Shown here in pieces: positions 8,017 to 59,917 of a DNA stretch of 64,000 nt (positions are counted from its first letter, which is position 1; every line of letters starts with the position of its first letter). Source of the stretch: Eledone cirrhosa. Taxonomy: Eukaryota. The stretch covers positions 194,742,001 through 194,806,000 of the forward strand of contig OZ024743.1 of assembly GCA_964016885.1 (NCBI GenBank), written 5' to 3'. The translations under genes were made by a program, and so were the position numbers. Below the pieces are notes generated by a model. That model saw only the letters and a list, made by a program, of their open reading frames with translations, made no database searches and was not told the DNA's origin.

Positions 8017-8705
<689 letters not shown>

Positions 8706-9673: not shown

Positions 9674-12600
9674 TTTTCTTTATTAACCACAAGGGTTTAC
9701 ATAAAGTAGACATTAAGGACAGTACAGGACAATACAGGACGGTACAAATGGGCATTTCTGCGTGTAAAAAAACAGAGGATGTAATAAAATAACAAAGAAA
9801 AATGCCCCAATATGTGGGAGACTTCCGAGGGACATTTGTGGAGAAAACCCATTAAAAGACCACAGTGACCCTGACCAACAGGGCAAGTGCCCTCTCCCAG
9901 TTTTCCACCTTTAATTTACAGACACATACTCAGAGAAGGCCCATTCATTCGGGCCATACTTGATTCTTCAACAAAATGCTGGGAAGAGAGCACTTCCCTC
10001 TCTACCCTGATTTTCCATTTCAAATGAAATTTGAAAAAGTTAATCAGGGCATCACCGAAGAGGTAAGTGCTCGCCTTCAGCCCTTTCAAACGTGTCCACC
10101 ATACTATCTCTTTCGCCATGTCCACCAGACAGATAAAAACTGCCTGCCCTTCCCGGCTAAAGGAAGAGGGCGGGGAAATCCTCACGATGGACTCAGCTGG
10201 TTGCTGGATCCGTCCTACACGTGACAGCAGGTGTTCGACATAAACCCACAAGTCAGCAATGCTGGGACACTGGACGAGTGCGTGCAGGACGGTTTCGTCA
10301 CCCTGTGCGCATCTCGGACATGCCCGGCTGACGGCACCTACATGCCTGTAGAGTTTATCCCGAACTGGCAAAGCTCCTCGGTAGCACTGCCAGGCCAGGG
10401 ATTTCTGGAAGTTGTCCATAGGCCCCGGCCCGAAAGTCCTTCCGAAGAGATTGGCTAGTTGATTTTCGTCGAGGCCTAGAGTTTCTCCAAGTACGTCGTC
10501 GCTCTTCCCCTCCATTAATCCCCTATAGAACGCCAAGGTGGAGTTTCCACCGATCACATTGCCCGATTGGTCGAGGGCTGTGAGCGCCTGAAGACATTCC
10601 AGTCTCCAAGCGCTCCCTCTCGGTCTTCGCTTGACCCAGGACTGCAGCTCCGTCAACGAAACGAGCTGGGTAAAAACGTGTCTAGCAAACGGCGACCACA
10701 CATGATCACCGTCGAGGAAGAGGTGGAGATGCGTAGCCTGAGCGCGTGTCATCAGCCACGGCTTGCCCAGCCCTCCGCGTAGCGGGTGTTGACAGCAGAT
10801 GGACCGCCTGACCATCGGAGCGCGTCCCTTCCACAAGAAGCGAAAGAGCAAACGCTCCAGCGCAGTCAGGCGGGGCTTTGGACAAGGTACGACGGTCAGG
10901 CGGTAGTAGATGACGGACGCGATGTACGCGTTAGCCACCCCCGCTCGACCTTTCAGGGATAGCTTCCTCTCGGCCCATTTCTGGGTGAGAGAAGCCACCC
11001 TGCTCGTCACCTCGTCCCAGTTTTTGTCCGTTTGGAGGTCTGGACCGAACCAGATCTCTAGCAATTTAACCGGTCCGTCCGTCCAGCGCCCGACGACGCT
11101 GTTGGACGGCATGGACCTGCCTCTCCAGGTGCCGAGCTGCAGGCCCACTGACTTTTCCTGGTTGATCATTTCTCCTGTTACCGCTTCGTATTCTCTTAGT
11201 GTAGTGCCGATCGCCTCGATGTGTTTGGCGTTCGACACCACTACGGTGACATCGTCCGCATATGCTGACACGGATCTTCCGCATCCTAGTTCGCGCGGGA
11301 CCCCCCTCAACGTCTCCAGTTTGTGCAGTAATGACTCGAGAGTCAATACGTACAATTGGGACGAGAGGGGACATCCTTGCCGACCGACCGCATGATGTTG
11401 AACGGTTCCGAAAGGTGACCGTTCACTCTCACTACAGAGCAGATGTCGCTGTGCATGGCAGCGATCCAGTCTCTGAAGACGGGCCCAAAGCCAGCCGCCC
11501 TCAGGACTGCCGCTAGGTAACGATGGTCGACCCTATCGAAGGCTTTCGACTGATCTAAATTGATCAAAGACCCACCCGTCCCAGGTTCCCTAGCGACCCT
11601 CTCTAGATGTATCGCATGAGGTGGAGGTTGTCGTGGATGGATCTGTCGGGAATGGCGCATGTCTGTGCCTCTCCCACCAGACCACCAACGACAAGCGCAC
11701 ACCTCTTTGCTAGCACCTTGGCCAAAATCTTGAACTCTGTGTTTAGCAGAGTTATAGGCCTAAAATTATCTATGTTATCCCCCTTGTTCGGATCCTTTCT
11801 CAGCAGCGCCACCGCTCCTCGGCTCACAGAGCTGGGAATTCTCTCGTTCTGTTGCCAGTTGCAGTAGACGTCCGCCAATAGGCCTCCGAAAAAGTCTGGC
11901 ATTTGTACGTAAAGTTCATAGGGCAGACCATCCAAACCAGGCGATTTACCCTTTGTGCAGCCAGTCAATGCCTCCCGTACTTCAGCGGTTGTTATCGGCT
12001 TTTCGCAACACTCCGCCTCAGTGGCCGAAAGCCGCGGCAGTCCGTCGAGGTAGACACTAAAATCCATCCCTCGATCCGGCCCGGCACTGCCCCCGAACAG
12101 TTGAGCGAAGTGTCGCTGAAAAGCTTCAAACATTTGCCCGGGATCGAGTAGCATGCGCCGGTCGTGGTCCACCAAAGACCGGATCGTGGCTTTGTTGCCA
12201 CGACGCGCCTCCACCACTCGGGCCCATTGAACGGCTTTCGTCCCCTCGTGTCTGAGAGCACGCACCCTAGCTTTGACAACGCAGCCTTCGTGCCTTGCAT
12301 TGAAGAATTGGTCAAGGACCAATTTCGCCGCTAAGCGCCTCGTCTAATTTTCTAACTAATTCTCCCTCTGCTCCATTTTTCTCTATTGCTAAAGCCTTAC
12401 TAAACCTAATGTCTCTATTCTAATTGCTCTTTTCAGAGCAAACCACCAATTGTTGTTGACGATGGCCCCCGTCAACGCCCGCGTAACTAGTTCGCTAATC
12501 CGGTCTCTGTAGCCCTTGCGCGCTGGTAAGGACGCGTTTAGCTTCGAGTAGCCGGGTCCTCGTCTATGAAGCCTATCTAGGTCAAGCACACAGATTACGA

Positions 12601-35035: not shown

Positions 35036-35075
35036 TGTTTAGATATAAATATATATATATATATATGAAAAAAGT

Positions 35076-35181
35076 GTGTCCTTCATCAGTGATCTTCCAA
35101 CTATCATAGGTATTTCATCGCTTTAAAGACCATATACCTCCGGTTGGTGCGAGCAACGGCTAAAAAAAGTCGTTGGGACAC
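35076..35181 (-). ncRNA. Putative non-circularly permuted hammerhead ribozyme (copy 1)
   Basis: Minus strand: gtgtcc-[caacgact/agccgttg hairpin]-c-tcgc-a-ccaacc-gg-aggta-TA-tggtctt-taaa-gcga-t-GAAA-tacct-atgat-agttgg-aagatca-CTGATGA-a-ggacac. Helices covary with the copy at 59652-59755. Confidence 0.7.
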
Positions 35182-35694
35182 GTAAATAAAGGGGACGCGA
35201 GGGTAAACAAACAAAATGGTGAGGCAACAGAAAGTGAGGAAGGAGGAAACAAGTCCCAGATTTCTATGAATTTAAGTTCGGTGAAATCGTGAACGAGAGA
35301 ATAAAGACCATCAAACCTGGTTGAAATGTGAGCAAGGAAGGAATTTTGCACAGGTCTAACGGGAGGAAGAAGGGGTCAGGTCTGCGAATTCGGTAAACAT
35401 AAGTTCTGTGAAATCGTAGACGCGAGAGAAAAAATTCCGACCAGCTTGGCCGAGAATGTGAGAGAAAAGAGTTACTCACAGGTCAAACGGGAAGAAAGAG
35501 GAGGAGGAGGAGAGGTAGTGACAGAGAATGAGTGAGTGAAGGGTGAGGTGAGGAAGAGGCTAAGAGAGAGAGAGACTGCTAGAAAGGGTAAAGATACGTA
35601 GAACGAAAAAGACGGTGTAGCAGCAGAGGAAAAAATATGTGTAAATATGATAAGGGCGCTGCGGAGTTGCAAATGGGTTACATATGAAAAAAGT

Positions 35695-35800
35695 TTGTCC
35701 TTCATCAGTGATCTTCCAACTATCATAGGTGTTTCATCGCTTTAAAGACCATATACCTCCGGTTGGTGCGAGCAACGGCTAAAAAAAGTCCTTGGGACAC
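35695..35800 (-). ncRNA. Putative non-circularly permuted hammerhead ribozyme (copy 2)
   Basis: Near-identical to 35076-35181; one stem III substitution (GAAAcacct) and one hairpin substitution. Confidence 0.65.
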
Positions 35801-36237
35801 GTAAATAAAGGGGACGCGAGGGTAAACAAACAAAATGGTGAGGCAACAGAAAGTGAGGAAGGAGGAGACAAGTCCCAGATTTCTATGAATTTAAGTTCGG
35901 TGAAATCGTGAAGTACATTATGAAGAGAGAAGAAACATTAGATATAATTAGTAATAAGATATATTATACTTATATATATAGACAGACTGAATAAAAATGG
36001 AGTAGCCATACAATTCAACAGGAGGAAACAATAGCACCGCTGACGGTGTTCCAGATGTGCAACGAAAGATTTATGATAGACTATATATATGTGTTTGTGC
36101 AACATTGAGGACCGAATATATTAGATTACCGATATAAAAGACACAGAAGCGAAAAGCGAAAACCAATGAAACAGTGAGTGTGTTCTGTTATTAATTCCGC
36201 AATATTACACAAATATGACCCTCCCCAAGTATAACAA

Positions 36238-37281: not shown

Positions 37282-37299
37282 GTATATATATGTATATAT

Positions 37300-38653
37300 A
37301 TATGTGTGCATGTATGTACATATATATACATAATACTGTACGTCTGTATACATATATGTATGTACGTATACATACTTATATTTAAGTAGCTGCCGTACTA
37401 ATAGTGGGAAATGAAATTTCGTTTCATTTTTTCCGTTTATCGTTTTCGGTGCACCCGGCCGATTAACCCACTCGATATGCAAATTGGGCTAGTCTGCCGT
37501 TAATATGCATAAGGAAAGTATATACTTTCAGACGTTCAATCATCTGGCAGGAAGGTATACGTTTCTGACGATAGCAATAAGCTTGAAACTAGTACAGCGT
37601 TCCTTTGTCAGTGTTGAACAAACGAGCAACGATGGTTGCTAGACACTACGGCTTAATACGGGATGTTTGTTTACACACACACCGTGCATTATAATAAATG
37701 TTCGGTGAATCCATACGTACATATATATATATGTGTGCATGTATGTATATATATATATACATACTACTGTACACAATTATGGATGTACGTATACATACTT
37801 ATATTCAAGTAACAGCCGTACTAAGAGTGGGAAATTAAATTTCGTTTCATTTTTTCCGTTTATCGTTTTCGGTGCAACCGGCCGATTAACCCACTCGATA
37901 TGCAAATTGGGCTACTCAGCCGTTAATATGCATAAGGAAAGTATATACTTTCAGACGTTCAATCATCTGGCAGGAAGGTATAAGTTGCTGACGATAGCTA
38001 ATAAGCTTGAAACTAGTACAGCGTTCCTTTGTCAGTGTTGAACAAACGAACAACGATGGTTGCTAGACACTACGGCTTAATACAGGATGTTTGTTTACAC
38101 ACACACCGAGCATTATAATAAATGTTCGGTGAATCCATACGTACATATATATATATGTGTGCATGTATGTATACATATATACATACTACTGTACGTCTGT
38201 ATACATATATGTATGTACGTATACATACTTATATTTAAGTAACAGCCGTACGAAGAGTGGGAAATGAAATTTCGTTTCATTTTTTCTGTTTATCGTTTTC
38301 GGTGCACCTGGCCGGTTAACACACTCGATATGCAAATTGGGCTACAGCCGTTAATATGCTTAGGGAAAGTATATACTTTCAGGCGTTCAATCATCTGGCA
38401 GGAAGGTATACGTTGCCGACGATAGTTAATAAGCTTGAAACTAGTACAGCGTTTCTTTGTCAGTGTTGAACTAACGAGCAACGATGGTTGCTAGACACTA
38501 CGGTTTAATACGGGATGTTTGTTCACAAACATACCGAGCATTATAATAAATGTTCTTTGATTCCATACGTAAATATATATATGTGTCCATGTATGTATAT
38601 ATATATACATACTACTGTACGTCTGTATACATATATGTATGTACGTATACATA

Positions 38654-38657
<4 letters not shown>
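37300..38657 (+). mobile_element. Tandem array (~425 bp x 3.2) with one minimal hammerhead per unit; retrozyme-like
   Basis: HHR cores at 37565, 37988 and 38416: (a)cgttg-CTGACGA-tagc.taataa.gctt-GAAA-cta-GTA-cagcgt. Flanked by (TA)n. Confidence 0.8.
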
Positions 38658-38701
<44 letters not shown>

Positions 38702-59529: not shown

Positions 59530-59584
<55 letters not shown>

Positions 59585-59651
59585 TGAAAAATGGCATGCT
59601 GCGTTGTTGCGAATATGAACATATGAATAAAAATAGAGTGAGAAACAAGAA

Positions 59652-59755
59652 TGTCCTTCATCAGTAGCCTGCTGATTATCATTGGAATTTCTTCGCATTA
59701 AAGACTAGATACCTAAAATCAGTGCAAGCGATAACTAAATTAAGTTATCGGGACA
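59652..59755 (-). ncRNA. Putative non-circularly permuted hammerhead ribozyme (diverged copy 3)
   Basis: Gap-free colinear homolog of 35077-35180, with conserved CTGATGA, GAAA and UH (ATC) and compensatory changes in three helices. Confidence 0.65.
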
Positions 59756-59864
59756 GAGGAAAACAGAGGAAAGGAAACAAACAACATGGTAGTAATGCGA
59801 CGTAAAGAGAGGAAAAGAGAGACAAGTCAATTAATCTTGTAGGCTTAAGTCCGACAAATCAAAT

Positions 59865-59917
<53 letters not shown>

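Follow-up and report, generated by a model that had tools for sequence, protein, structure and literature searches.

A predicted hammerhead ribozyme with non-circular block order in a retrozyme-like mobile element of Eledone cirrhosa

Introduction

At positions 59652-59755 of a 64,000-nt stretch of the Eledone cirrhosa genome (the whole stretch that was analysed, hereafter the window), the original prediction placed a diverged copy of a permuted hammerhead, with helices that change in compensating pairs, and it took this as a sign of selection on an RNA structure even though the copy itself might be dead. Is this RNA a hammerhead, what element carries it, and at what level would selection on it have acted?

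Results

The window copy is a single insertion of a mobile subfamily

Alignment confirmed a gap-free minus-strand homolog of the copies at 35.1 and 35.7 kb, with the core kept (CUGAUGA homologs at 35089 and 35708); the 118-nt cores of the window copy and the 35-kb copies are identical at 82 of 118 positions (nhmmer E 6.9e-17). Reading of the sequence bore out the listed helix changes, namely three double changes in the hairpin, three in the bridging helix, and one double change with two G-U swaps in stem I, and the U-H site is kept, with C as H17. The proposed association with (TA)n also held, a run being present on both sides of the copy (Table 1). The flanks had been described as unalignable, which proved incorrect: family-A loci align to the window copy over ~300 nt at ~70%, and the identities between families A and B (ribozyme 74/103, tail 46/64, just upstream 42/63) reveal a ribozyme sequence no more conserved than the tail of the element.

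Every core base of the window copy is intact, and it departs from family B at just two positions (~2.5% from the family majority): a private change at 15.3 (A>U at 59686; 1 of 40 family-B copies) that places a U.U in stem III, and a C>U change in helix b where a wobble remains (2 of 40 copies). Mismatches in stem III and at 10.1-11.1 had both been listed against this copy; the former is indeed private, whereas the A.A at 10.1-11.1 is the majority state of family B and not private decay, so that the suggestion of a dead copy retains one mismatch in its favour and has the intact core against it. The window copy is probably passive and possibly weakened by its stem III mismatch, and it is sound evidence for the fold of the family. 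Because the mobile subfamily to which it belongs has thousands of insertions, selection would have acted on master elements and not on this locus; the claim of selection on the RNA structure is kept in that form only, and a conserved host locus under selection is ruled out by the same copy number and by the small distance from the family majority. A degenerate internal repeat of ~130 nt (~70-74% alike) lies in the family-A monomer and may account for size steps between subfamilies.

Table 1. Features of the window discussed in the text (positions are those of the window).
Feature	Position	Strand	Remarks
Insertion, window copy	59582..59867	minus	Solo, 5′-truncated, 286 nt; subfamily B of the retrozyme-like element
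(TA)n runs flanking the window copy	59534..59581 and 59868..59901		
Element 3′ tail	59582..59651	minus	Ends in (TA)n
Leader strand a	59751..59755	minus	Partner 59652-59656
Leader hairpin h	59729..59750	minus	8 bp, 6-nt U-rich loop; arm of predicted four-way junction
Leader strand b	59723..59727	minus	Partner 59693-59697, just 5′ of GAAA (pseudoknot, stem II equivalent)
Bridging helix i, 5′ strand	59717..59722	minus	Partner 59672-59677
Predicted kink-turn, non-bulged strand	59714..59716	minus	3n, 2n, 1n
Block S	59702..59713	minus	Stem III strand, U16.1 (59709), C17 (59708), stem I 5′ strand (59707-59702)
Block G	59684..59697	minus	b′ strand, 11.1 (59692), GAAA (59691-59688), stem III strand
Predicted kink-turn, bulged strand	59678..59683	minus	3-nt bulge, then G1b, A2b, U3b
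Block C	59652..59670	minus	Stem I 3′ strand (59670-59665), CUGAUGA (59664-59658), 10.1 (59657), a′ strand (59656-59652)
Subfamily A insertion	35060..35912	minus	~1.4 monomers, 619-nt period, two ribozymes
Subfamily A ribozymes	35077-35180 and 35696-35799	minus	
Internal repeat of family-A monomer	35236-35496		
Decayed minimal hammerhead of another repeat	36035-36090	plus	Canonical order, core with one change; ~120 nt from the family-A insertion; intact versions in L114, L148 and L152
Hammerhead-like motif	8487-8530	plus	Canonical order, stem II paired
538-aa frame	9916-11532	minus	RVT_1 and zf-RVT; LINE fragment unrelated to the ribozyme
Tandem repeat	37293-38660		423-nt unit, 3.2 copies, 92% matches

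The core is conserved in a non-circular order

On the minus strand the blocks stand in the order site-GAAA-CUGAUGA (S-G-C) and not in the S-C-G circular order of hammerhead types I, II and III. Read 5′ to 3′, strand a, hairpin h, strand b, strand i and three nucleotides precede the stem III strand with U16.1 and H17; the stem I strand, a 4-5-nt linker, strand b′, 11.1, GAAA, the second stem III strand and six nucleotides follow; and strand i′, the other stem I strand, CUGAUGA, 10.1 and strand a′ close the structure. The site is flanked by stems I and III, as a hammerhead requires (in the window copy with the U.U in stem III), and by analogy with hammerheads we infer a cut between 59708 and 59707, that is, 3′ of H17. 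A circular permutation that merely appears in a circle was ruled out, since circularising leaves the cyclic order S-G-C unchanged. Rfam yielded no hammerhead match, either for the element by itself or, of the 168 hits to the window, among the 150 listed.

Harvesting of cores from the genome gave 220 sequences, of which 26 were truncated; the remaining 194 full-length copies fell into 21 clusters, and the nine with at least three members (181 copies) were used as subfamilies, in a sample that over-represents families A and B. Nearly all copies keep G12 (191 of 194), A13 (192), A14 (192), A15.1 (193) and U16.1 (191), and 192 have A or C as H17; the presence of CUGAnGA was a requirement of the harvest. 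Positions 10.1 and 11.1 pair in eight of the nine subfamilies (A-U, G-U or U-A) and in a held-out one (G-C), and face each other as A.A in family B, where the letters at 11.1/10.1 are AA in 24, AC in 8, AT in 7 and GT in 1 of 40 copies. Covariation of this pair is not significant (4,376 of 20,000 shuffles, which ignore relatedness, reach it).

Helices covary between subfamilies

In a first pairing test on 25 sequences hand-chosen to span the subfamilies, 94.3% of cells were paired and 18 of 36 pairs displayed double changes, a value reached by none of 500 shuffles, while slid registers gave 26-46%. On a tree of the nine subfamilies we counted 30 pair-state changes, at least 14 of them double and 3-4 pair-breaking, so that 26-27 of the 30 keep pairing; within families, 104 of 199 departures break a pair. 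Whether further homologs break the proposed pairings as often as they keep them is thus decided in favour of the fold at the level that matters, because decay is seen in dead copies and compensation in master lineages.

Pairing in the pseudoknotted stem I holds for 54 of 54 subfamily pairs (0 of 20,000 shuffles, relatedness ignored), with five G-U and no A.C pairs, which supports the proposed minus-strand permuted hammerhead with real covariation that includes this crossing helix. Helix b is likewise paired throughout (36 of 36 subfamily pairs) with one double change, and is not significant alone (2,194 of 20,000 shuffles, again ignoring relatedness). Double changes occur at five of the eight pairs of hairpin h and at four of the six pairs of helix i, and these two nested helices carry two subfamily-level A.C pairs each, which are G-U on the plus strand. 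Helix a has four invariant pairs, and one of its pairs is compensated in the held-out subfamily L344, which also has new compensations in helix i. The held-out loci L340-L346 furthermore provided new stem I pairs, together with the G-C at 10.1-11.1, which comes with a one-base shift of helix a; the exceptions are a U.U at the end of stem I in one subfamily and a C.A in stem I of the single truncated copy L345.

A four-way junction and a kink-turn are predicted around the core

No more than one pair (10.1-11.1) connects blocks G and C directly, and the leader pairs with both halves (a-a′ and b-b′). From these pairings, the leader and its hairpin h are predicted to complete a four-way junction on the core that splits stem II. 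Stem III is joined to the bridging helix by a kink-turn consensus, in which three bulged bases are followed by tandem G.A-type positions. Among the 194 copies, G1b is kept in 189, A2b in 191 and A1n in 190; 2n is G in 148 and U in 45 (three of the U represent an alignment shift in family F), with U in subfamily B and G in most other subfamilies, and U.U is the commonest state of 3b.3n. All nine subfamilies and the Octopus Naiads (see below) carry this consensus. Kink-turns are defined by a 3-nt bulge with tandem G.A pairs and have an included angle of 50 degrees, according to the available part of PMC5061560; the likeness here, in which a 3-nt bulge and then G.A and A.G separate two helices, is one of sequence. 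With its U at 2n, subfamily B resembles the non-standard Thermus Kt-23, which is described as folding with this base in the portions of the sources consulted (PMC4316175, PMC5061560). No paper describing a kink-turn within a hammerhead came up in our literature search.

The kink-turn consensus, the four-way junction in place of stem II, the assignment to the type-SGC class and the link to Naiads are new relative to the original prediction. With a helical rise of 2.8 Å, axis arithmetic yields an inter-junction distance of 23 Å with the kink and 53 Å without it, against a 14-Å helix b, and 19 Å against 17 Å for stem I; by this rough estimate, a monomer fold would be feasible.

Thousands of copies reside in non-coding tandem units

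Three search patterns gave 13,043, 16,099 and 15,432 matches in the 3.0-Gb genome, the last being the pattern that holds all three blocks, and no match in the reversed controls. The carriers are non-coding, TA-targeted tandem units of ~500-800 nt, with 47 same-strand spacings that span 445-806 nt and an array of nine in locus L098. Six monomers examined are pyrimidine-rich with 38-44% GC and hold one sense core each; none of the six has an antisense ribozyme of the kind associated with symmetric rolling circles. Among sequencing data sets, no RNA run was listed for the element, and the four contig sets of one study that contain its DNA were left out of the evidence.

A sample from the first 45 Mb of contig C1 contained 108 array 3′ ends, of which 80 continue into TA repeats. 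The 3′ ends cluster at about +26-30 (26 ends) and +75-93 (61 ends) relative to the core, extents that overshoot by a few nucleotides through TA microhomology; the two clusters recall the optional 30-40-bp tail of Naiads (PMC8557442). Inverted truncated arms are common among the loci. The 5′ junctions are not clearly enriched at the predicted cut site, with ~4 independent cases of 107 within a few nucleotides, a count near chance and confounded by TA microhomology. A few inversion junctions lie 0-3 nt from the predicted cut site (L068, L069, L101 and L036, with both arms in L101). The insertion of 1.4 units at 35 kb, with its fixed 3′ end downstream of the cut site, fits a template that was either circular or a tandem transcript left uncleaved. 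Approximately ten short tandem repeats of 45-75 nt were also observed just upstream of a family-B ribozyme in L026 (C7:11478601-11479361).

The same fold, read by eye, ends some published Naiad elements

Naiads, a group of Penelope-like elements (PLEs), are described in the available parts of PMC8557442 as lacking canonical hammerheads, with some 'half cores' listed, as targeting (TA)n and as carrying optional 3′ tails of 30-40 bp. By eye, we found the same leader-S-G-C fold at the 3′ ends of at least 10 of the 54 published Naiad consensi seen there: two from Octopus, three near-identical ones from Acropora, one from Beroe and four others, placed in parts 9, 12, 12 and 19 of the supplement. 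This number, obtained with four core spellings and little surrounding sequence, is a minimum, and many published Naiad records show no core by those spellings. The Octopus consensi also have the kink-turn and the same U-rich hairpin loop, the Beroe consensus has a stem I of two pairs only, and one published Naiad forms an almost straight rod that is hardly compatible with a monomer fold (all by eye). In several nematode Naiads of File S5 of that paper (parts 13-16), the order is the canonical C-then-G with a long branched stem II, and Naiads therefore seem to use more than one non-standard hammerhead layout; several arthropod Naiads in parts 16-19 of the same file have a core after a C-run and a strand complementary to the bases that follow the core, are not of the leader-S-G-C kind at a glance, and may represent yet another wiring.

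Metagenome contigs were scanned with a pattern built from the Naiad records, which yielded at least 120 stretches, plus 2 viral matches; 43 of the 122 metagenome and viral matches listed passed the helix filter, those visible being of a coral type. Viral contigs gave 2 matches and 0, and the 2 were judged to be chance. The coral-type copies (13 aligned) are 96.2% paired, with three double-change pairs (in helix a, helix i and stem I), and possess a larger asymmetric loop where the kink-turn would be. A reverse transcriptase (RT) motif, sought as a regular expression, was present in 1 of 33 loci with long upstream sequence, and a C-terminal RT piece lies upstream of the ribozyme in 2 of the 18 long loci listed (L262 and L276); Pfam names no family for either piece. 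Searching the E. cirrhosa genome with the C-terminal RT piece recovered, among 150 scored candidates, only three decayed Naiad-like remnants, which have neither 3′ ends nor ribozyme and resemble the published Octopus Naiads. No similarity to the family-A monomer was detected by nhmmer in any of the compared loci, whether PLE, coral-type or Naiad-remnant.

Candidates for an autonomous partner in the genome were sought with four motif patterns, whose 0, 1, 1 and 6 matches were all chance or unrelated on inspection. The 45 GIY-YIG loci carry canonical-order hammerheads or none, the sole true SGC copy being a separate insertion in L111. Intact elements with a C-terminal GIY-YIG, which we take to be Neptune-like, are abundant (150 scored hits, 96-100% identity, several frames >1,200 aa) and carry canonical-order minimal hammerheads. 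These are the likeliest RT donors, because the Naiads of this genome look dead. A young Penelope-like family (L111-L125; C2:73740228 and others), whose open frames reach ~1,260 aa and whose 3′ end contains a minimal type I hammerhead, is very abundant, at 38,543 first-look candidates.

The (TA)n target, the inverted truncated arm and the optional 3′ tail are traits of the Naiad type that the short elements display, and other PLE clades share them. We consider it quite likely that the short elements descend from Naiad 3′ ends, and since the same fold ends Naiads that were reported without canonical hammerheads, the SGC-order fold is likely a Naiad ribozyme that has been overlooked.

Alternative readings of the pairing

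The pairing might belong to a plus-strand or DNA-level hairpin, with the hammerhead letters incidental. Copy A1 does fold better on the plus strand (z −3.0, versus −1.8 on the minus strand), and the four A.C pairs in the nested arms point in the same direction; stem I, in contrast, crosses those arms and has G-U but no A.C pairs on the minus strand, the unpaired invariant bases spell the hammerhead core on that strand only, and the six monomers are free of an antisense core, which leaves this reading scarcely credible. It is also improbable, if somewhat less so, that the fold is real and catalysis was lost in the short elements, the RNA being kept as a protein-binding or RT-recruiting 3′ structure, for example through the kink-turn. 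The A.A or C.A at 10.1-11.1 in 32 of 40 family-B copies and the 5′ junctions without a clear pile-up at the cut site would agree with such a loss, while all catalytic positions are kept across subfamilies, H17 being limited to a switch between A and C, and the Naiad records available to us keep them across animal phyla.

More weight attaches to a domain-swapped double hammerhead, although we regard it as unlikely. The same pairs would form between two molecules or neighbouring repeats, each unit keeping its nested arms and lending its loop, so that only tandem transcripts would be cut and monomer circles spared. Covariation is blind to the difference between intra- and intermolecular pairing; the nested arms a, h, i and III are found again by RNAalifold, and the two pseudoknot helices originate in a single loop; hammerheads of axolotl retrozymes are stated to cut better as dimers (PMC7229834, in the part available); and Naiad versions without the kink-turn have longer or nearly straight rods (by eye, in the published records seen). 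The presence of the kink-turn consensus in all nine subfamilies and in Octopus Naiads, however, makes the monomer geometry roughly feasible, and published type-SGC ribozymes cleave co-transcriptionally as short single constructs, according to the consulted part of PMC10085705. A fold within one molecule is in our judgement several times as probable as the swapped dimer.

Discussion

The locus is probably a 5′-truncated copy of a non-coding tandem mobile element, likely descended from Naiads, with a predicted SGC hammerhead that would cut 3′ of 59708. We hold the fold as drawn with high confidence, and judging from the sequences, intact members very probably cleave at H17. In the monomer, stem III and the bridging helix would form one rod, folded back by the kink-turn so as to bring the base of the rod to the upper ends of stem I and helix b, and the leader four-way junction would leave helix b free to point back at that rod. 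The life cycle that we propose follows that of animal non-LTR retrozymes: transcripts reading through a tandem array would be cleaved to monomers, which would be circularised and then reverse-transcribed from the tail for more than one turn. Both a Penelope-type RT and a GIY-YIG endonuclease would act in trans, and the intact Neptune-like elements are their most likely source.

There is about an even chance that this non-circularly permuted hammerhead is the overlooked ribozyme of much of the Naiad clade (ctenophores, cnidarians, arthropods and cephalopods), with a fourth strand that makes stem II a four-way junction, and that in the present lineage it gained a kink-turn and gave rise to ~15,000 retrozyme copies. 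If so, the non-circular hammerhead would move from anonymous metatranscriptomes to animal genomes, at high copy number and with a job, and the published view that Naiads thrive without canonical hammerheads would be revised, as would the argument that hammerheads may merely parasitise Penelope-like elements. The gain of a kink-turn, if true, could put self-cleavage under the control of host proteins of the L7Ae family. Descriptors for type I hammerheads would then have missed an entire class of retrozymes, and the predicted ribozyme, which is compact, naturally varied and testable, bears on the steric puzzle raised by Eckert 2023 of how the bridging helix connects to stem III (described in the accessible part of PMC10085705).

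Among known ribozymes, the closest comparison is with type SGC (HRIMA-1 and variants; Eckert, Friedrich, Weinberg and Weinberg 2023, PMC10085705), and on sequence grounds we file the present ribozyme as a variant of this type that would work like it. As far as the available part of that article describes them, both share the S-G-C order with a full core, a short linker from stem I to stem II, two pseudoknots and a helix that joins the distal sides of stems I and II, here helix i with its linker of 4-5 nt. In type SGC, stem II forms directly between blocks G and C, whereas here each half is paired with the leader, which contributes a hairpin as well; the bridging helix here is, in addition, tied to stem III on both strands through the kink-turn consensus, unlike in type SGC, and the word 'kink-turn' occurs 0 times in the main text available from PMC10085705. 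The examples given there derive from metatranscriptomes and none from the genomes of known organisms, in contrast to the ~15,000 copies in an animal genome reported here; our literature search, which covered few subscription papers, found no report of SGC-order hammerheads in animal genomes or in Naiads.

The carriers resemble animal non-LTR retrozymes (Cervera and de la Pena 2020, PMC7229834; Li, Clavereau and Pollet 2026, 10.64898/2026.07.22.740005), which in the consulted portions of these papers are likewise non-coding tandem units with one hammerhead each, occur as dispersed monomers and arrays, and have a proposed origin from Penelope-like elements. Those retrozymes are defined by, and searched with, type I hammerheads, while the present units of ~500-800 nt carry an SGC-order ribozyme, and circular RNAs are shown for the retrozymes and predicted for the elements described here. 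With Naiads, as far as they are described in the available part of Craig et al. 2021 (PMC8557442), the elements share (TA)n targeting, inverted truncated arms, an optional 3′ tail and, by eye, the fold at the 3′ ends of at least 10 consensi; Naiads encode a GIY-YIG endonuclease and an RT, whereas the elements here are non-coding and have bodies without detectable similarity to the Naiad-type loci compared.
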